Positions 1 to 8,479 are shown, counted from the first letter of the stretch. The stretch: 64,000 nt of DNA from Casimicrobiaceae bacterium (GCA_037719965.1 JBBJMT010000013.1:26805-90804), one strand, 5' to 3'. The notes: generated from the sequence alone by a model not told the origin. Numbers and translations are program-made.

Positions 1-508
1 CGAGAAAACGGTCATCGATGTGCAGCGCGACGACGCGCCCGATGACCACGCTGCTGCGGCGCTCGCCTGGGCCGGTCGGTTCGATGTCGATGATGCGGAC
101 GACGTTGCATTCCAGGTTGACTGGAGACTCGGCAACCCGCGGCGGCTTGACTTTGCGCGACGGCGCCTTGGTCAGATGCGCAAGTGCGAATTCGTCGATG
201 CCATGGGGGGCTGTCGCCGATGTGAGATTCATGCGCTCGCGCAAATCGTAGTTCACGAAATTCGCGACGAATTCACCGCTCGCGCGCGCATTGGCGAGCG
301 TGTCCTTCTCGCCGCGGTCTTCCGGGGCGTTGCCCGCGAACATCACCATTGGTGGGGTGGCGGAGATTCCGTTGTAATAGGAAAACGGCGCGAGATTGAC
401 GAGCCCTGCGTCGCTTATCGTGCTGATCCAGCCAATCGGCCGTGGTGCGACGATGGCGTTGAAAATCGTATTCTTGTACGTCGCGAAGTCGGACGGCTCG
501 AGATACAT
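1..508 (-). CDS. Flavin reductase family protein (FMN-binding split barrel), 3' end outside the window
   Basis: Absent from the ORF track; manual translation from ATG at 508 gives MYLEPSDFATYKNTIFNAIVAPRPIGWISTISDAGLVNLAPFSYYN...KDTLANARASGEFVANF...RVAESPVNLEC, with the typical PRPIGWIST/NLAPFS/ESPVNLEC motifs. Confidence 0.9.
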   Translation of the reverse strand, partial: MYLEPSDFATYKNTIFNAIVAPRPIGWISTISDAGLVNLAPFSYYNGISATPPMVMFAGNAPEDRGEKDTLANARASGEFVANFVNYDLRERMNLTSATAPHGIDEFALAHLTKAPSRKVKPPRVAESPVNLECNVVRIIDIEPTGPGERRSSVVIGRVVALHIDDRFL

Positions 509-522
509 AAGGAACGATAAAT

Positions 523-1422
523 CTACAAAAGCCCCGCACGCTGCAACACGCCGTCCAGACGTTTTTCCAGTTCGGGCGCGGCGGGTAGCATCGGCAATCG
601 GTGCTCGTTGTTCTTCAGGAGGCCTAAGCGCCGCATCATGTATTTCATCGGAATGGGATTTGTGTCGAAGAAGACGGCAAGGTTCAATTCATGTAGGTCA
701 AAGTGCAGCGCACGGCCACGCTCGAGATCGCCGTCGCGCACGGCGGTGCACAGCGCCGCGATCTTGCCTGGAACGAGGTTCGCGACGGCGTTCATCGTAC
801 CCACCGCTCCTAGCGCCATCATCGGGAAGGTGAACTCCTCGAGCCCAACGAACACGCGGAAGTCAGGTCCGAAACGGACGAGCATCTGCGTGACCAAGCC
901 GAAATCGTTGACCGCATGTTTGATGCCGACGAAATGCGGCACGACTTCGGCAATGGCTTCGAGTGTCGCGAGTTCGACGCTGACGGCCGTGCGGCCGGGA
1001 ATGTGGTAGATCATGAGCGGCAGATTGGTGCGCCGGCCCAAGTCAGTGTAGTACGCGACGAGCCCGCGCTGCGGCGGCCGGACGTAATACGGTGTGACGA
1101 TGAGCAGTGCATCGACACCGGCGCGTTGCGCGTGCTCCGTCAACGTCACGGTCTCGGCGTGCGACTGCGATCCGGTTGCCGCGATCACCGGAATGCGCCC
1201 GCGGCAAACCTGGACGGCAACATCCACCAGGCGGTTGCGCTCGTCGAGCGTAAGCGTTGAGGGCTCCGACGTCGTGCCGTTGACGACGACCCCGTGGGTT
1301 CCGTTGGCGACCTGGAATTCGAGCAGCTTGGCGTAGGCCTCGTAGTCGACCGCGCCATTCAGGAAAGGGGTGACGATTGGGGGCGCCGAGCCGATCAACT
1401 GGTTCGGCGCGAGTTGGATCAT
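523..1422 (-). CDS. DapA-family class I aldolase/lyase, closer to catabolic HpaI/PhdJ-type hydratase-aldolases than to biosynthetic DapA
   Basis: PPIVTPF, NGTTSE, IVTPYY, YHIPGRT and the Schiff-base Lys in GIKH; start overlaps the stop of the upstream cupin gene. Confidence 0.8.
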   Translation of the reverse strand: MIQLAPNQLIGSAPPIVTPFLNGAVDYEAYAKLLEFQVANGTHGVVVNGTTSEPSTLTLDERNRLVDVAVQVCRGRIPVIAATGSQSHAETVTLTEHAQRAGVDALLIVTPYYVRPPQRGLVAYYTDLGRRTNLPLMIYHIPGRTAVSVELATLEAIAEVVPHFVGIKHAVNDFGLVTQMLVRFGPDFRVFVGLEEFTFPMMALGAVGTMNAVANLVPGKIAALCTAVRDGDLERGRALHFDLHELNLAVFFDTNPIPMKYMMRRLGLLKNNEHRLPMLPAAPELEKRLDGVLQRAGLL

Positions 1423-2543
1423 CCTGGCATCCGATTGGTCGCGAATCCGCGCTCACGGCCCAGCACCGCCGCGGGGTGCTTCAAGCTTTCCTGCCACAGC
1501 AGCGATTCCATGTAGATATTGAGCGGCTGATCCTGCACCGTCAGCTCGTACACATAGTCGTCGTACGATGCATGATTGTGCACGGCCCACCCCGGCGCCG
1601 ACAGCATCAAATCGCCGGCCTTCCATTCGTACCGATTGCCCGCGACGATGCTGTAGCCGCGTCCGGAGAAGTAATAGTTGATCGCGGCGGAGACGTGCCG
1701 GTGCGGGCGATCGATGATGCCGGGCGGGCGAATAGTCATCGTCGCAAAAAAATTCGGCGTGATGCCGTTGGTGCGCCCCGTCATCGGGTTGTAGTACATA
1801 TAAAGCCGGCGTCCGACGTACTGCTTGCCTAGAGCTTCGAGCTTGTCGAGCTCGGGTTTCACCTTCTCCCACGGAAAATACAATACCTTCGAGGCAGCGA
1901 CCGGCGGATTGATCAGCACCTCGTAGGGCATCAACAAGCCGCCGTCATCGGTAACGGCAAACATGCCGAAGGGATTGTTGCGCCGCAGATCGGCGTTGTC
2001 TTCTTCGTCCATCGCGGCACTCTCCACGTTGGTATCCGGCGGGGTCGCGCCATCCTCGCAGATATAAACCTGCATGTGCTGCAGCAGCGGCACGTTTGAA
2101 TAGGTCAATCGTACCTGCAGCTCGGTGCCCGGGTTCGCGTGCGTGTAAGACGTGTACGACGGGTGATTCCAGACATCGTATTGGCCGAATTCGATCGTGC
2201 GTTCGTCGACGTTGCAGACGCCGGAACCTTTGATGCAAAAATTGATCTCGGTTGCGTTGTGGCGCATCGGCAGCGATGTCTCGTCCGGCTTGAGCACCGA
2301 TAGCTTGACTTGAATGCCCGGCGCCAAGCCGGGTGCGTTGGGCGCGGCCAACGGGTGCGCGATCAGTGCCTCGCGCCGCCCGCTCGAAGGCACCGGTGCG
2401 CTCGCCAGCCGTTCGATTTCGGCGTCGATTGCTTCCTTGGCGACAACGACCGGCGGCCACGTTGTATTGAGCGGCGGCTCACGATCCGTGACGTCGATGA
2501 ACTGTCCCTGGTACGGTGCGAAATGTTGGCGAAAATCGTTCAT
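1419..2543 (-). CDS. Bicupin, gentisate 1,2-dioxygenase-like ring-cleavage dioxygenase
   Basis: Two cupin repeats (PMRHNATEINFCIKGSG...YTHAN and RPHRHVSAAINYYFSGRG...GWAVHNH) plus the LYMYYNPMTG and VQDQPL segments typical of the GDO family. Confidence 0.8.
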   Translation of the reverse strand: MNDFRQHFAPYQGQFIDVTDREPPLNTTWPPVVVAKEAIDAEIERLASAPVPSSGRREALIAHPLAAPNAPGLAPGIQVKLSVLKPDETSLPMRHNATEINFCIKGSGVCNVDERTIEFGQYDVWNHPSYTSYTHANPGTELQVRLTYSNVPLLQHMQVYICEDGATPPDTNVESAAMDEEDNADLRRNNPFGMFAVTDDGGLLMPYEVLINPPVAASKVLYFPWEKVKPELDKLEALGKQYVGRRLYMYYNPMTGRTNGITPNFFATMTIRPPGIIDRPHRHVSAAINYYFSGRGYSIVAGNRYEWKAGDLMLSAPGWAVHNHASYDDYVYELTVQDQPLNIYMESLLWQESLKHPAAVLGRERGFATNRMPG

Positions 2544-2576
2544 CGCGTTACTCCTTTGTTGAACCTAGTGTGCGAA

Positions 2577-3164
2577 TTAACGTTGATCCCTGACCGGCGC
2601 CCCATCTCCTTCGAACCCATCGGCAAAGATGGAGGGGACCGGAGCCGCGAGACGTAGCGTGTTGACGGCGATCGCGTGCGTCACATAACGGCCGATCAGC
2701 AATACTACGGCGATTGCCTCTGCGGATGAGAGCAGCCCTGCCATTGCCTCGAATTCTATCGTGGCTTGACGCCCACCTGTGTTAACAGCAGCGATAGCGT
2801 AGCGTTGAACCGCGCGCTCGGCCTCGTTCATCAGATGCGCTCCCTCCGGATCCAGCCGTTCGACCTCGGCAATCCAATTGTGCCCATAACCCAAGCGCAC
2901 CGACAGCCGCTCATGCTGATTGCGTTCATATTGATTTTCGAGAAGGCTCGCAACGGTCAGAACGATCGTTTCCGTCAGGCGATCGGGCAATGCCTCCTTG
3001 AGCGCGTCGGTAAACCGGATGAACGCAAGCAACGCCGCAGGAGCGTGCGCGGCGCGCTTGAACCATTCGCCCAGATACCCGAGCCGAGAGACGCGAGGCT
3101 GCAAATAGCCTGCGAGCTCGGGATGCATTGCGTGCAGTTCCAGCGGGGGAAGCGCTTGAGCCAT
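2577..3164 (-). CDS. Carboxymuconolactone decarboxylase/AhpD-like protein
   Basis: Start moved to ATG 3164 (MAQALPPL); LPDRLTETIVLTVA...YERNQHERLSVRLG...EAERAV pattern of CMD-like helical proteins. Confidence 0.7.
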   Translation of the reverse strand: MAQALPPLELHAMHPELAGYLQPRVSRLGYLGEWFKRAAHAPAALLAFIRFTDALKEALPDRLTETIVLTVASLLENQYERNQHERLSVRLGYGHNWIAEVERLDPEGAHLMNEAERAVQRYAIAAVNTGGRQATIEFEAMAGLLSSAEAIAVVLLIGRYVTHAIAVNTLRLAAPVPSIFADGFEGDGAPVRDQR

Positions 3165-3349
3165 ACAGGGAAGGTTGTTAGCGACGAAGCGGAGCCTACG
3201 CCGCCGCTGCGGCCGGATCAATCCTGATGCGCAGATCCTAAAGAAGGGCGAAAGACGCTGTTCTGTTGCCGCTCGCCGCTCGCGTCCCTTCGACACTGAC
3301 GGCAGGGCGTACCATTTCTCCCGTCGGAATATCCTACCGTAGATGATCA

Positions 3350-3661
3350 ATGGATACATGGATCGAAGTCATGGCAGCGGACGCCATTGAGCCGGACAAC
3401 GCGGTCGGTGTCGTCATCAATGGTCGCGACATAGCGATCTACAACGACGGCGGCGAATTCTTCGCCACCGATAATATCTGTACGCATGCCCAAGCGTTCC
3501 TGTGCGACGGCTTTCTTGAAAATGGCGAAATCGAGTGCCCGCTGCACCAGGCTCGCTTCGACATTCGCACCGGAAAAGTCATGCGGGAGCCGGCGATCGA
3601 CGACATAGAGACCTTCCCGGTGAAAGTCGAAGCAGGAAGAGTCTTCGTGAAAATCGAATAA
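3350..3661 (+). CDS. Rieske [2Fe-2S] ferredoxin of the ring-hydroxylating oxygenase type
   Basis: DNICTHAQAFL...IECPLHQARFDIRTG (CxH...CxxH). Confidence 0.93.
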   Translation: MDTWIEVMAADAIEPDNAVGVVINGRDIAIYNDGGEFFATDNICTHAQAFLCDGFLENGEIECPLHQARFDIRTGKVMREPAIDDIETFPVKVEAGRVFVKIE

Positions 3662-3864: not shown

Positions 3865-4611
3865 ATGAACACACCACTCTCGACACGACGCGACCTGCTG
3901 CACCGCTTGCCACTGCTTCTCCCGCTGCTCTTCGCCGTCCTGCTCGCCGGATGCGGGCAGCGCCATGCGGTCGTCCCTGACCGCAACGGTGAGCCATTGA
4001 TGCTGCTGGGCCATGATCCGGTTGCGTACTTCACAGTCGGCAAAGCGATTCGCGGCAGTCCCGACATCGTTGCGCGGCACGAGGGCTCCACCTACTACTT
4101 CGTGAGCGAACAGCATCGCGCCATGTTCATGCAGGCGCCGGCCAAATACGTTCCGCAGTACGGCGCTTTCTGCGCCAGCGGCGCGGCATACGGCGTGAAA
4201 CTCGGCAGCGATCCGACCGAATTTCGCATCGTCGATGGGCGACTCTTTGTTTTCGGCGACGTGCTGGGTCGCGAATACTGGCTGATGGATCCCAAGTGGC
4301 ATATCGAGAAAGCCGATGCGTTGTGGCCAGAGACCGGTGCGTACGGCCACCGCTACCAATCGCTCAAGCGATTCGCGTTCAAGGTGCCCTGGTACAAGAA
4401 TGGGAAACAGGTGCACGACGAGTGGCAGACCGCGCATCCCGGCGCCAAAGTCGACTACGACCCGGGCGGTGTGTTTACCAATCTTTTCGTCAAGTATCCG
4501 GGTTGGCGTGCACGCGAAGGGTACGGGCAGCCCGCGCTCGGCCTGGTCGGCGTCGATCCTTGCCCGCCAGCGTGCGCCGGTGTGGAATCGAAGGGCTACG
4601 CCGCCCAATAA
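3865..4611 (+). CDS. YHS-domain lipoprotein with C-terminal extension
   Basis: Lipobox LLAGC; GHDPVAYF...YYFVSEQHRAMF...PAKYVPQYGAFCA...IVDGRLFVF. Confidence 0.75.
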   Translation: MNTPLSTRRDLLHRLPLLLPLLFAVLLAGCGQRHAVVPDRNGEPLMLLGHDPVAYFTVGKAIRGSPDIVARHEGSTYYFVSEQHRAMFMQAPAKYVPQYGAFCASGAAYGVKLGSDPTEFRIVDGRLFVFGDVLGREYWLMDPKWHIEKADALWPETGAYGHRYQSLKRFAFKVPWYKNGKQVHDEWQTAHPGAKVDYDPGGVFTNLFVKYPGWRAREGYGQPALGLVGVDPCPPACAGVESKGYAAQ

Positions 4612-4695: not shown

Positions 4696-5481
4696 TTAGC
4701 GTTGGGCCAGAAACTGCGCGATGCCGTTCCAGAAGAGGTTCGATGCGCCAAGCGTGTTGTGATCTTCGCGCGGCACCGAGAGCCACGTCTTCGGCCCTGC
4801 CCATGCGTCGAACAGCGCACGCGAACGATTCACTGGAATGATGGAATCCATTTCGGCGATGATCGCAAGCAGCGGCATCTGATTTTGTCTCGCGGCATCA
4901 ACCGTGTCGAAGCGGTGCCGCAATAGCAGCGACACCGGCAACCACGGATAGTGCTTCTGGCCAATCGCCGCGAGGCTATCGAAAGGTGAGACCAGCACCG
5001 CGCCGTTGATGCGTCGCTTCGCGGCAACGTGCGTCGCGAGGGCGGTGCCAAGGCTGCGCCCGAATACGACGATGCGTGCCCCGTCGATGTCATCGCGCTG
5101 TGCGACCGCATCGTAGATCGCCAGCGCATCCGTGGTGAGTTCGCGCTCTCCTGGCGCACCCTCGCTCGCGCCGTAACCGCGGTAATTGATGGCAACAATC
5201 GACCACTCGCGCGGCCACCGTGCATCCGCCAGCGTCCACGAAACTTCCTCGGCATTGCCGCCGAAATAGATGACCGCGGGGGCACGCGCGGCGGCGCTTC
5301 TGACAATCCAGCCGCGCAAGCGAATGCCATCCGAGGCGACTATTTCCAACCCGACGGCACGCGCCGGAAGGTGAGTCGTCGCGGTAATTGGCTGCGGGAA
5401 AAAAATCAGACGCTCCTGCCCCAGCCACGCTGCCGCCGGCACTCCTAACGCCAATACGGCAGCGAGAATGAGCCATTCCAT
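4696..5481 (-). CDS. Membrane-anchored alpha/beta hydrolase (ABHD13/Bem46-like)
   Basis: YFGGNAEE, NYRGYGAS, nucleophile elbow GRSLG, EDHN; start taken at MEWLIL. Confidence 0.85.
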   Translation of the reverse strand: MEWLILAAVLALGVPAAAWLGQERLIFFPQPITATTHLPARAVGLEIVASDGIRLRGWIVRSAAARAPAVIYFGGNAEEVSWTLADARWPREWSIVAINYRGYGASEGAPGERELTTDALAIYDAVAQRDDIDGARIVVFGRSLGTALATHVAAKRRINGAVLVSPFDSLAAIGQKHYPWLPVSLLLRHRFDTVDAARQNQMPLLAIIAEMDSIIPVNRSRALFDAWAGPKTWLSVPREDHNTLGASNLFWNGIAQFLAQR

Positions 5482-5571
5482 ACCGTTGCGCCACTTATCG
5501 CGCCACCCTCGCGGTGGTTGGTCCGCCATCGTGAAATTATAGGTGCGGTTGCCCTGCTTCGCCGTGTCCGG

Positions 5572-7134
5572 TCAGAAGTCTCCGCTAGCTTTCTCTTTGT
5601 AAGCGTCGCGCAACTCGCGCTTGAGCACCTTGCCGATAGCGCTGCGCGGGAGAGCCTCCATCGTCTCCACCGCGGCCAACCGCTGGATCTTGCCGAGCTT
5701 CGCATTCGCCCATTGCCGCAATTGCTCGGCATCAAGCAGCGCGCCCTTCTTCGCGACCACGAACGCCACTGGGGTCTCGCCCCATCGCGTCGACGGCACG
5801 CCGACGACGGCAACCTCGGCGACGTCGGCATGCTGGCGAATGACCGCCTCGAGATCGCTCGGGTAGATGTTGAAACCGCCCGAGATGACCATGTCCTTTT
5901 TGCGGTCCAGCAGCACGAGGAAGCCATCGTCGTCAAAGCGGCCGATGTCACCGGTGCGGAAGAAGCGCTTGCCGGTTCGATCGAACCATTCGGCTTCCGC
6001 CGTCCGGGCCGGCTGCCCATGATAGCCGGTCATCATCGCACCCGAATGGCCGACCACTTCGCCGATTTCGTCGCGCGGCACCTCGCGCCCGGCATCGTCG
6101 ATCAGGCGAATGTCGTGTCCCGGGGCGGGGCGGCCGACGGTGTGCAGTTTGTCCGGATTCTCTTGGGCGAAAAGAACGGCCGTACCCCCACCTTCGGTCA
6201 TTCCGTAAAACTCGACGAGGCCGCCCGGCCAGCGCCGCAATACATCGGCTTTGAGAGCCGCGGCGAACGGCGCGCTGGTACAGAGCTTGATTTGAAAGGA
6301 CGAGAGGTCGTAGCGTTCGAAATTTGCGAGCGCCATGATGCGCTGGTACTGTACGGGCACTAGCATCGTGTGTGTAACACGGTGTTGCTCGGCCAGTGCC
6401 AGATACCCCGCGGCATCGAACTTCCCCATCAACACCACCGCGCCTCCCAGCGCCAGCGTCGGGAAGACGCATACCAGCGTCGTGTTCGAGTAAAGCGGTG
6501 TGGCGATTAACGTCACGCAGTCAGGACCATAGCCGTACAACCGTCCGCGCTGAATTTGCGACCAGCGCATCGCGTGCGGTTGCGCGATGCCTTTCGGAGT
6601 TCCAGTGGTGCCGGACGAATAGATGATGTTGAACGGCCACTCGGGCTCGATCATCACAGGCTGCGGTTTCGCGTCAACGTCTACTAACCAGGACTGCAAC
6701 GATTCGCCGGTGGTGGAGCCATCAAGTGCGATGCACGTTGCCGCGATCGCAGCGCGCATAGGCGCGATGGTCGTCGCTGCTGCCTCGTCGAGAAAGAGGT
6801 GTCGCGCGCCGGCATCAGCCACCATTTCGACGAGACTCTCGACTGTCGTCGACGGGGCCAGCAGCGCCACGGCGACGCCCGAGCGCAAGGCGCCGAGAAA
6901 GATGACCGCGTATTCGATTGAGTTCGCGCTGCAGATAGCGATAGCGGCACCGGGGTCCGCGCCGTCGCGTTGCAGCGTCGCGACGACGCGGTCCATCAGT
7001 GCGTCGAGATCACCGTAGTCGAGCGTGCGGCCTTCCTGTACCAGCGCCACATGCCGCGGCGCGCGCTCCGCATGGATGCGTATCAAGTCGGTAAGAGTAC
7101 CGAAGTCCCGTGCGAGGAGGTCTGCGAAAGCCAT
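5572..7134 (-). CDS. Class I adenylate-forming acyl-CoA synthetase
   Basis: IIYSSGTTGTPKG, YGMTEG, TGDIG, DRKKDMVISGG, PRSAIGKVLK. Confidence 0.92.
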   Translation of the reverse strand: MAFADLLARDFGTLTDLIRIHAERAPRHVALVQEGRTLDYGDLDALMDRVVATLQRDGADPGAAIAICSANSIEYAVIFLGALRSGVAVALLAPSTTVESLVEMVADAGARHLFLDEAAATTIAPMRAAIAATCIALDGSTTGESLQSWLVDVDAKPQPVMIEPEWPFNIIYSSGTTGTPKGIAQPHAMRWSQIQRGRLYGYGPDCVTLIATPLYSNTTLVCVFPTLALGGAVVLMGKFDAAGYLALAEQHRVTHTMLVPVQYQRIMALANFERYDLSSFQIKLCTSAPFAAALKADVLRRWPGGLVEFYGMTEGGGTAVLFAQENPDKLHTVGRPAPGHDIRLIDDAGREVPRDEIGEVVGHSGAMMTGYHGQPARTAEAEWFDRTGKRFFRTGDIGRFDDDGFLVLLDRKKDMVISGGFNIYPSDLEAVIRQHADVAEVAVVGVPSTRWGETPVAFVVAKKGALLDAEQLRQWANAKLGKIQRLAAVETMEALPRSAIGKVLKRELRDAYKEKASGDF

Positions 7135-7264
7135 GCGTTGTCATAAGCCCCGGTGTGGTCGGCTCGCTGTGTCTGATGATGACCGGAAGCGGTCGTTAAA
7201 TGTCGTATTTCGGCCCCCAAAACTCCAATAGGAAGCGCCACTCGCCGGAGCAACACCGGCGACG

Positions 7265-8479
7265 TCAGGCGAGGTGCACCGTTCCGGGGGAGGGCAAGCC
7301 GATCGATTTCTTGAGAACTACGCGGTAGCTCGCGAGGTCGGCGTCGCGGTAGAGGCAGTTCGCGACAGCCCAGAGATAGAGCTGGAACGACCTCACCACC
7401 TTCTCGCCGAACTTCCGGGCGAGCTCCGCACTCGCAGCGTCGAGTCTTTCGGCCCACGCCTTGGTGGTGAGGAAGTAGCTATGCCGGTCGTTGTGAATCG
7501 CGATAATCTCGAAGGGAACGTCGTTGGTGGCGGCGATCAGCTTGTGCATGACGACCGGGCTGTGATCACCCTGAAACACATGCCGGTGCGTGAACGTGCT
7601 GATCGCGTATTTCTTTCGGGTCGCGACGAAATCCAGGTACACATAGCCGCCCGGCTTGAGCAGTGTGTCGAAATGACGCATCAGCCGCTGATATTCGGGC
7701 AAATGCTCCATCACTCCCAGCGCGACGATCGCGTCGAAGCGCTGGGGAGATTTGTGGTCAAAGATGCTTTCCAACCTGGGCGTGAGCCGCCCGTTGTAGG
7801 GCTCTTCCGCGCTCAGTTTCGAAAGGTAAGCGAATTGTTCTTTCGACAACGTAAGCATGGTCACGTCGTTTCCCCGGCTCGCGGCGAACCTGGAAAATGA
7901 ACCCCAGCCGGCGCCGAGATCAAGCACTTTGGACCCTGGCCCGAGGCGGCAGGTGTCGCAAATGTAGTTCAACTTGTTTTCGGCCGCTTCTTCGAGACTC
8001 TCGTCCCCGGTACGATAGAGCGCCTGCGAATAGAGCCGGTGGCGCTTGTCGAGAAAAGTCCAGTAGAACTCATTGCCGAGATCGTAGTGCGTGGCGATGG
8101 CTTTCTTGTCGGTCTTTTTTCTTCCCGCGAGCAACGGTTGCAGGAAACGCATCAATGACAGGACGGGGTGATCGTCGGAGAACAGTCTGCGGAGCTCGAA
8201 CGCCTGCAGGAAATCGCCTTCGAGGTCGAGGTCCGAGTTCACGTACGCGTCGGCGATCGCATATTCGTCCAACGACACGAGAGCCCGCGATCCGAGTTGG
8301 TTGCGGACATGGACCTTGAATGCCGGAGGCGTCTCCGATCCGTATCGATTGCCTTCGTTGCGGAACTTGTGGACCTCGCCGCCAGGCAACGTGAGATCGA
8401 ATGCGGCCGCGCCTTTTTTCGCCAAGTGGCGCCGGAATGTCGACACTAAGCGCTGTTGTTGTTCTCCCTGAATCGACAC
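7265..8479 (-). CDS. Cyclopropane-fatty-acyl-phospholipid synthase family SAM methyltransferase
   Basis: IATHYDLGNEFY, LEEAAENKL, VLDLGAGWGS, GVMEH. Confidence 0.85.
   Translation of the reverse strand: MSIQGEQQQRLVSTFRRHLAKKGAAAFDLTLPGGEVHKFRNEGNRYGSETPPAFKVHVRNQLGSRALVSLDEYAIADAYVNSDLDLEGDFLQAFELRRLFSDDHPVLSLMRFLQPLLAGRKKTDKKAIATHYDLGNEFYWTFLDKRHRLYSQALYRTGDESLEEAAENKLNYICDTCRLGPGSKVLDLGAGWGSFSRFAASRGNDVTMLTLSKEQFAYLSKLSAEEPYNGRLTPRLESIFDHKSPQRFDAIVALGVMEHLPEYQRLMRHFDTLLKPGGYVYLDFVATRKKYAISTFTHRHVFQGDHSPVVMHKLIAATNDVPFEIIAIHNDRHSYFLTTKAWAERLDAASAELARKFGEKVVRSFQLYLWAVANCLYRDADLASYRVVLKKSIGLPSPGTVHLA

Follow-up and report, generated by a model that had tools for sequence, protein, structure and literature searches.

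Gentisate 1,2-dioxygenases (GDOs) and salicylate 1,2-dioxygenase (SDO) are bicupins of one fold that bind iron through a His-x-His...His motif. In the SDO of P. salicylatoxidans (2phd) and the GDO of E. coli (2d40) the complete site is N-terminal, and relatives of the type of the S. pomeroyi GDO (3bu7) keep both metal sites. An arginine, Arg127 of SDO, is strictly conserved and essential in these enzymes (PMC11264262). Such a GDO-fold enzyme is combined with a two-subunit Rieske oxygenase and a Rieske ferredoxin in the nag pathway of Ralstonia sp. U2 (salicylate 5-hydroxylase NagGH-NagAaAb, NagI, NagL, NagK), and in the PhdI/PhdJ (1-hydroxy-2-naphthoate dioxygenase and hydratase-aldolase) and NahE systems a GDO-class cupin is followed by a class I enzyme of the DapA superfamily that acts on a 2-oxo-enoate. 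In homoprotocatechuate degradation, ring cleavage involves HpaD/E/F/G, and the lower pathway consists of the hydratase HpaH, the aldolase HpaI and succinate semialdehyde dehydrogenase (SSADH). Here we describe a bicupin operon at the beginning of a 64,000-nucleotide stretch of DNA from a Casimicrobiaceae bacterium (GCA_037719965.1 JBBJMT010000013.1:26805-90804, in our numbering G000:C9:26805-90804), which we call the window; the DNA upstream of it was examined as fragment L003 (C9:11805-31804).

Window positions 1-3164 contain four co-oriented genes on the minus strand, which form the promoter-proximal part of a five-gene operon. The operon encodes, in this order, a protein with the fold of AhpD and carboxymuconolactone decarboxylase (CMD), the bicupin, a DapA-like aldolase, a flavin-reductase-like protein and a thiamine pyrophosphate (TPP)-dependent enzyme, the fifth gene lying outside the window. 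The gaps across the five genes are 33, -4, 14 and 19 bases, and the sequence ATGA at 1419-1422 is both the stop of the bicupin gene and the start of the aldolase gene, a 4-base overlap. An earlier note on this DNA had described four co-oriented genes for a CMD-like protein, a bicupin, a DapA-type aldolase and a flavin reductase, with the cupin stop overlapping the aldolase start, as an aromatic ring-cleavage operon without an assigned pathway; all four genes and the overlap were found, and the description is supported. We confirmed that the operon is real and coherent, and read it as part of a catabolic cluster for an aromatic carboxylic acid. Its features are:

2..508, minus strand: flavin-reductase-like gene (PF01613); the N-terminal 169 of 208 aa are in the window, full gene G000:C9:26686-27312
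523..1422, minus strand: DapA-family class I pyruvate aldolase, 299 aa (PF00701, 247 bits)
1419..2543, minus strand: bicupin of the gentisate/salicylate 1,2-dioxygenase fold class, 374 aa (Pfam Cupin_2 in two stretches)
2577..3164, minus strand: AhpD/CMD-fold protein, 195 aa, cysteine-free (predicted fold; Pfam CMD match below threshold)
3165..3349, no strand: divergent intergenic region, 185 bp, presumed promoter region (from the coordinates of the operon and the ferredoxin gene)
3350..3661, plus strand: Rieske [2Fe-2S] ferredoxin, AndAb-like, 103 aa (PF00355, 77 bits), divergent from the operon
G000:C9:24933-26666 (L003 13129-14862), minus strand: TPP-dependent enzyme, 577 aa, fifth operon gene, outside the window

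On balance, and by a small measure, we favour the following reading of the whole cluster. A Rieske oxygenase would hydroxylate an aryl monocarboxylate, and the bicupin, whose fold and metal ligands are documented below, would cleave the hydroxylated ring with O2, using a three-His Fe(II) site located in the C-terminal cupin. The ring-fission product would then be processed by an NAD(P)H-dependent partner, which is flavin-reductase-like here and mostly a member of the ornithine cyclodeaminase/mu-crystallin family (OCD-like) elsewhere. Finally, the DapA-like class I aldolase would split a C7 2-oxo-dicarboxylate into pyruvate and succinate semialdehyde.

The best NCBIfam model for the bicupin was that of the 5-aminosalicylate dioxygenase MabB with 73 bits (cut-off 650), and the gentisate dioxygenase model TIGR02272 gave 52.4 bits (cut-off 442). 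Among PDB sequences the protein matched the GDOs 3bu7 (E 4e-18) and 2d40 (E 8e-14), and in both matches its C-terminal cupin was paired with the iron-binding cupin. An AlphaFold2 (AF2) model was built on a 45-sequence alignment that included members down to about 31% identity as well as outgroups, and reached a pLDDT of 92.7 and a pTM of 0.91. As determined with VIA, this model aligned to 2phd with a Z of 33.1 (model residues 9-356 vs. chain residues 30-368), to 3bu7 with 31.9 and to 2d40 with 30.5. These three alignments were collinear over about 300 residues at 17-22% identity, and all other bicupins gave Z values of 20 or less; in Foldseek the TM of the model was about 0.7. Judged from the predicted structure, the membership of the bicupin in the GDO/SDO fold class is not in doubt, and the structural alignment makes its N-terminal cupin the counterpart of the catalytic N-terminal cupin of SDO.

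The complete metal site of the bicupin, however, is C-terminal. The earlier note had placed the complete HxH...H motif in the C-terminal cupin (RPHRH at residues 279-283 and VHNH at 321-324), the opposite half compared with E. coli GDO and SDO, and we found this to be true of the whole family. H281, H283, H322 and H324 were invariant in 78 of 78 members from related loci, and the motifs around the site were almost invariant in these members. H281, H283 and H322 were also invariant in the 45-sequence alignment, where H324, the residue that matches SDO His162, varied in three distant members. A complete N-terminal three-His site, equivalent to His119/121/160 of SDO, was absent in all 78 members, and the C-terminal-only pattern held in members down to about 31% identity. 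Two-site GDO-like outgroups drawn from the representative library differ in that each of their cupins has an HxH..H motif. In the N-terminal motif (PMRH, residues 92-95, followed by Glu99), the note had seen Met in place of the first His. The loss of this His is indeed family-wide, but the Met is not a conserved ligand, as position 93 is a variable hydrophobic residue (F, I, M or V) and never His across family members from related loci. Of 76 members, 63 retain H95, and position 99 is occupied by Glu in 46 members and by Gln in 29.

The arginine position sets the bicupin further apart from SDO and the GDOs. Arg127 follows the second His of the motif by six residues; its equivalents in the bicupin are Asn289 in the C-terminal and Asn101 in the N-terminal cupin, whereas GDO-like outgroups have Arg at that position in the N-terminal cupin only. 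Since Asn is found there in both cupins, the active site is not just a GDO site moved to the other cupin.

A canonical GDO is encoded elsewhere in the genome (G000:C18:542559-543617, L102 6560-7618, minus strand) and scores 565.6 bits with TIGR02272. Because this 566-bit enzyme sits on contig 18, the bicupin is not the gentisate dioxygenase of this genome. The bicupin has 52 bits on the same model and a separate canonical enzyme is present; the outcome that the earlier note had named as refuting its proposal, a cupin that clusters tightly with characterized GDOs and cleaves only gentisate, did not arise. The canonical gene is far from the operon and adjoins a TRAP transporter permease gene.

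At E<=0.001, a word-index search for the bicupin returned 2585 cluster representatives related to it, the best 120 of them at least 66% identical over the full length, and a 50%-identity library contained 85 bicupin representatives at E<=1e-30. Hosts of the clade are Burkholderiales, Xanthobacteraceae, marine Pseudomonadales and, in the form of fusions, Acidobacteriota, and database labels call its members only 'cupin' or 'gentisate dioxygenase'. In close relatives the distribution is patchy: one of 24 same-genus genomes searched had the bicupin, at 46% identity.

For comparison we fetched 80 loci and counted gene pairings in the 58 related loci whose flanks extended 4 kb or more on each side of the bicupin gene. 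Recurrent neighbours in the 80 loci were genes for Rieske oxygenase alpha and beta subunits, a Rieske ferredoxin, DapA-like, flavin-reductase-like and AhpD-fold proteins, a TPP enzyme and TctC, as well as an ornithine-cyclodeaminase/mu-crystallin gene and an SBP/NMT1-like gene. Comparative genomics showed that the bicupin has an obligate, interchangeable partner, predicted from its families to be of NAD(P)H type. An OCD-like gene alone was found beside the bicupin in 34 of the 58 loci and a flavin-reductase-like gene alone in 22, no locus had both and two had neither; the constant pairing with such a partner is another difference from SDO and the GDOs. In the 22 loci that have it, the flavin-reductase-like gene is downstream of the bicupin gene, directly or after the DapA-like gene, and fusions of OCD-like protein and bicupin make up 27 protein clusters. 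In the bicupin tree the partner type switched at least two to three times. The bicupin of the window is nested within an OCD-partnered Burkholderiales clade, and its flavin-reductase partner is therefore a replacement. The OCD-like and SBP/PhtD-like ('c11') genes that are common neighbours in other loci have no counterpart in this genome except for a remote OCD paralogue (29% identity).

The flavin-reductase-like protein matched PF01613 with 73.5 bits for the part in the window and 75.5 bits for the full 208 aa (gathering score 27). Its relatives in the PDB are component B of NTA monooxygenase (3bpk, E 3e-28) and, more weakly, the 2-nitrobenzoate nitroreductase NbaA (4z85, E 2e-21); the likeness to NbaA indicates that the reductive activity of the family is not confined to free flavin. 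NCBIfam matches of the OCD-like proteins were cyclodeaminase, Pyr2C/Pip2C reductase and iminosuccinate reductase.

The aldolase scored 303.5 bits with TIGR02313 (HpaI-NOT-DapA), its best model, yet stayed below the cut-off of 396.7; the dapA model TIGR00674 gave 259 bits, above its cut-off of 206 and still less than TIGR02313. The protein is about 35% identical to DapA. Together with 33 homologues encoded beside bicupins, it keeps T44, Y107, Y133, K161, R138 and G186 (E. coli DapA numbering), which include the Schiff-base Lys and the catalytic triad, and the residues of the lysine site are changed in this group (H53 to V or L, H56 to R, N80 to Q). In DapA, Arg138 binds the carboxylate of aspartate semialdehyde, from which succinate semialdehyde differs only by the missing amino group.

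The genes that occupy the same place in other loci point to a C7 lower pathway. A DapA-like gene alone was present in 25 of the 58 loci and an HpaH gene alone in 11; both never occurred together, and neither was found in 22. On the Ralstonia solanacearum megaplasmid the order is hypothetical (AhpD-fold)-OCD-bicupin-hpaH-hpaI-SSADH-ALDH (ALDH, aldehyde dehydrogenase), with an HpaH of 451 bits against a TIGR02312 cut-off of 351, so that here the genes of the lower homoprotocatechuate pathway follow a GDO-fold bicupin and a reductase instead of HpaD/E/F/G. An hpaH-hpaI-SSADH block also lies upstream of the bicupin gene in one related locus (L083), and HpaH homologues with 48-59% identity replace the DapA-like gene in gammaproteobacterial loci. 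In Paraburkholderia the order is bicupin-'hpaI_2'(DapA-like)-hypothetical-OCD. Because of the mutual exclusion with HpaH, the hpaH-hpaI-SSADH blocks near the bicupin and the retained carboxylate-binding Arg, the aldolase is predicted to cleave 4-hydroxy-2-oxoheptanedioate (or 2-oxohept-3-enedioate) to pyruvate and succinate semialdehyde. The genome of the window has no HpaH above the cut-off, and it has an SSADH that is 65% identical to that of Ralstonia. In one other locus (L047 10313-11128, minus strand) we observed an HpaH-like open reading frame with 49% identity to Ralstonia HpaH in tblastn, yet with no Pfam match at E<=0.01; its assignment follows the tblastn match and the TIGR02312 score of the Ralstonia protein.

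The earlier note had likened the cupin and aldolase pair to PhdI/PhdJ. This scheme was not supported, as the aldolase is nearest to TIGR02313 and DapA and the Ralstonia hpaH-hpaI-SSADH genes in the same slot point to the lower pathway of a C7 diacid rather than to an aryl-substituted enoate. What the systems would share, apart from the order of a GDO-class cupin and a class I DapA-superfamily enzyme, is that one DapA-like gene appears to replace a hydratase plus an aldolase. A weak partial match of the aldolase (24.8% over 36% of the query) was to a DHDPS-family gene on a plasmid of Pseudomonas sp. XWY-1, which we take to be a naphthalene-catabolic plasmid; on that reading, hydratase-aldolases of the naphthalene type would be much more distant from the operon protein than DapA.

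Beyond the TPP gene, and convergent with the operon, are genes for a TctC-family binding protein and an AndAc/AndAd-like Rieske oxygenase alpha/beta pair. The alpha subunit matched NagG (7c8z) with 460 bits and about 55% identity, and terephthalate dioxygenase with 337 bits. In this oxygenase subfamily an Arg binds the substrate carboxylate (R323 in NagG, R309 in TphA2), Ser243 of TphA2 binds the second carboxylate in terephthalate dioxygenase, and anthranilate and hydroxypicolinate oxygenases are also included (PMC9060491). The alpha subunit of our locus keeps the carboxylate Arg as R333 and has Leu at the position of Ser243, where NagG has Met257. As R333 is kept and the second-carboxylate position is Leu and not Ser, the substrate is probably an aryl monocarboxylate, to judge from these residues. 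The heterocyclic substrate that the earlier note had considered found no backing: the oxygenase is about 55% identical to the salicylate 5-hydroxylase NagG, the carboxylate Arg is kept, and nothing points to a heterocycle.

The Rieske ferredoxin encoded at 3350-3661 matched the AndAb model NF041683 with 99.6 bits, below the cut-off of 150. Such a ferredoxin accompanies oxygenase and bicupin in other Burkholderiales loci, and it is presumed to be the electron carrier for the nearby Rieske oxygenase. Oxygenase, carboxylate Arg, ferredoxin and a GDO-fold ring-cleavage enzyme are thus features in common with the nag pathway. The locus differs from it in having neither NagL- or NagK-type genes nor a reductase gene, in a ring-cleavage enzyme of another clade, and in the DapA-like, flavin-reductase-like, AhpD-fold and TPP enzyme genes that take the downstream place.

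The simplest chemistry that would connect these proteins begins with 1,2-cleavage of the salicylate type, giving 2-oxohepta-3,5-dienedioate. A two-electron 1,6-reduction would turn this into 2-hydroxyhepta-2,4-dienedioate, the substrate of HpaH, and the reduced product would then be hydrated and aldol-cleaved as a C7 2-oxo-diacid. In this specific form, bicupin and NAD(P)H partner would constitute an undescribed 'reductive' ring-fission route, in which an iron site in the C-terminal cupin, lacking the Arg, delivers 2-oxohepta-3,5-dienedioate to be reduced and passed on to an HpaH/HpaI-type or DapA-like step. We put this form forward as a tentative proposal that is possible but, by itself, unlikely.

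Several points weigh against our reading of the cluster. An oxygenase so close to NagG would be expected, by analogy, to make gentisate, and maleylpyruvate, the product of gentisate cleavage, cannot give the HpaH substrate by one reduction. OCD-family enzymes reduce the C=N bond of 2-imino acids and not C=C bonds, which is awkward for an ene-reduction. With Asn289 at the place of Arg127, the chemistry of the bicupin may differ from that of known GDOs and SDO. In 22 of the 58 loci neither a DapA-like gene nor HpaH is found within 8 kb, and all the loci counted are related and not independent events. A search for fusions of flavin-reductase-like protein and bicupin found none, which is weak evidence. 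Finally, a literature search for the bicupin clade, its partners and the gene combination of the operon found no functional study or assay; the nearest match was an in-silico preprint on a FAH-OCD-cupin beside a Rieske oxygenase of Achromobacter.

We keep a variant gentisate pathway and a nitrogen-bearing substrate as rivals in view of the resemblance of the oxygenase to NagG, which suggests gentisate, the imine reductase activity of OCD enzymes and the missing Arg127. In the gentisate variant, which is possible but which we regard as unlikely, the oxygenase would make gentisate from salicylate or a close analogue and the bicupin would be a divergent GDO; the partner would reduce maleylpyruvate at the 4-oxo group or the double bond, and the aldolase would release pyruvate and a C4 semialdehyde, so that isomerase and hydrolase are replaced. 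Genes for a maleylpyruvate isomerase or a fumarylpyruvate hydrolase are indeed absent from the locus, in Ralstonia hpaI is followed by two aldehyde dehydrogenase genes, and the 55% identity to salicylate 5-hydroxylase and the GDO/SDO fold fit this scheme as well. However, in the absence of the DapA-like gene the bicupin is accompanied by an HpaH equivalog (451 bits), and a hydratase would be needless if C4 were oxygenated. Moreover, the genome already has its canonical GDO, the bicupin reaches 52 bits where the cut-off is 442, and it lacks the Arg127 that is conserved in all known GDOs (PMC11264262).

If the substrate were an aminobenzoate, an aminosalicylate or a pyridine carboxylate, the fission product would cyclise to an imine, the OCD-like enzyme would reduce it as a ketimine reductase, and the DapA-like enzyme would act on an amino-C7 diacid related to tetrahydrodipicolinate. 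This would suit the OCD/mu-crystallin enzymes, which are imine reductases or cyclodeaminases also by their NCBIfam matches, and an aldolase with all DapA catalytic residues; MabB as the top model of the bicupin (73 bits) and the anthranilate and hydroxypicolinate oxygenases in the oxygenase subfamily (PMC9060491) agree with it. Nevertheless, we consider a nitrogen-bearing substrate improbable: the alternative genes at the aldolase step, hpaH, hpaI and SSADH, act on nitrogen-free C7 acids, a flavin-reductase-like protein can stand in for the OCD-like one, and the loci share no conserved deaminase or amidase gene.

Very doubtful is the view that the bicupin is no oxygenase at all but a metal-dependent isomerase, decarboxylase or tautomerase of a 2-oxo acid, comparable to BacB of bacilysin synthesis, with reductase and aldolase downstream. 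The loss of the catalytic GDO Arg, the obligate partner that uses NAD(P)H and the existence of some loci without any oxygenase gene could be explained in this way, but not the Z values of 30-33 to GDO/SDO as against 20 or less to other bicupins, the invariance of the three-His site and the His162 equivalent in 78 close members, or the frequent adjacency of a Rieske oxygenase. That the aldolase gene encodes a second biosynthetic dihydrodipicolinate synthase (DHDPS) in coincidental gene order, for which the passed dapA cut-off (259 vs. 206 bits) and the complete set of catalytic residues could be cited, is hardly credible given the higher TIGR02313 score, the changed lysine site, the 4-base overlap with the bicupin gene, its conservation beside the bicupin in 33 loci and its exclusion by HpaH, and a dapA paralogue on contig 27 (349 bits on the dapA model, 37% identical to the operon aldolase), by its score likely the biosynthetic DapA; the earlier note had named a biosynthetic DHDPS as the result that would tell against it, and this was not what we found.

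If the favoured reading is true, the cluster represents a new route that feeds a cleaved benzene ring into central metabolism as pyruvate plus succinate, and enzymes of the GDO class can have their catalytic site in the one cupin or in the other. With OCD-like vs. flavin-reductase-like protein at one step and DapA-like protein vs. HpaH/HpaI at another, it would also be a clear example of non-orthologous displacement, and many database annotations as 'gentisate 1,2-dioxygenase' and 'DapA' would be corrected. The reductive route, if true, would be the downstream pathway that has been missing where monohydroxybenzoates undergo ring fission directly, and it would be widespread among Proteobacteria of soil, freshwater and the sea. 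Should the model prove wrong, the cluster is an ordinary accessory island for aromatic-acid catabolism.

The first protein of the operon was called CMD-like in the earlier note. By sequence this is weak (Pfam CMD, PF02627, 15.1 bits, E 0.024, where the gathering score is 23), but the predicted fold bears it out: the AF2 model of the 195-aa protein (pLDDT 93.4) aligned in Foldseek with TM 0.73-0.78 and a root-mean-square deviation of 2.2-2.6 Å to the AhpD/CMD-family structures 2prr, 6e8l, 3lvy and 6k40, and its Atlas neighbours were CMD clusters throughout (score 0.89). It has an invariant Y-E-R-x-Q-H-E-R motif and zero cysteines and is therefore not a CxxC peroxidase; possibly it is a decarboxylase or isomerase. 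The CMD-like gene occurs in 25 loci and is tied to the DapA-like gene (17 loci with both, two with the CMD-like gene only), and the window protein is 62% identical to the product of the hypothetical gene that precedes OCD and bicupin in Ralstonia.

The best NCBIfam model for the 577-aa TPP enzyme was the generic 'TPP-requiring protein' (228 bits, cut-off 456). Its gene adjoins TctC in other loci. Since seven of the eight flank-filtered loci with a TPP gene contain neither a DapA-like gene nor HpaH, the enzyme may be an alternative way of processing the 2-oxo-acid product.

In many Burkholderiales loci (L014, L032, L033, L072 and others) a fusion of a MerR/excisionase-type helix-turn-helix (HTH) domain with a citrate-synthase-like domain is encoded divergently from the bicupin operon, for example on the Paraburkholderia plasmid AP028202 at 1274446-1275699, and it is probably the regulator in those loci. 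At the locus of the window this fusion is absent and no regulator is evident; a consensus promoter/terminator scan gave nothing above chance, with no sigma-70-like site in the 185-bp intergenic region.

The dipicolinate (dip) cluster of Alcaligenes faecalis had been considered on account of the DapA-like gene, the TctC protein and the 3-hydroxydipicolinate intermediate, and was dropped. Regulators in the bicupin loci are of MarR or citrate-synthase-like/HTH type, and GntR is not among the recurrent conserved neighbours. DipD of that cluster is not known to resemble other oxygenases. The DipR paper (PMC11472048) assigns the genes to no families, and the words 'cupin' and 'Rieske' do not occur in it.

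On the other side of the ferredoxin gene, the window contains an alpha/beta hydrolase, an AMP-dependent ligase (520 aa) and a cyclopropane-fatty-acid-synthase-like methyltransferase (404 aa), encoded by co-oriented genes at 4696-8479 on the minus strand; they have no conserved adjacency to the bicupin in other loci. Directly after the ferredoxin gene, at 3865-4611 on the plus strand, lies a gene for a YHS-domain protein (NF041384, 108.6 bits, cut-off 70), with an apparently signal- or lipoprotein-like N-terminus and no evident link to the operon. The gene order of the operon locus is the same in a Casimicrobiaceae metagenome-assembled genome (L004), with proteins that are 92-100% identical.

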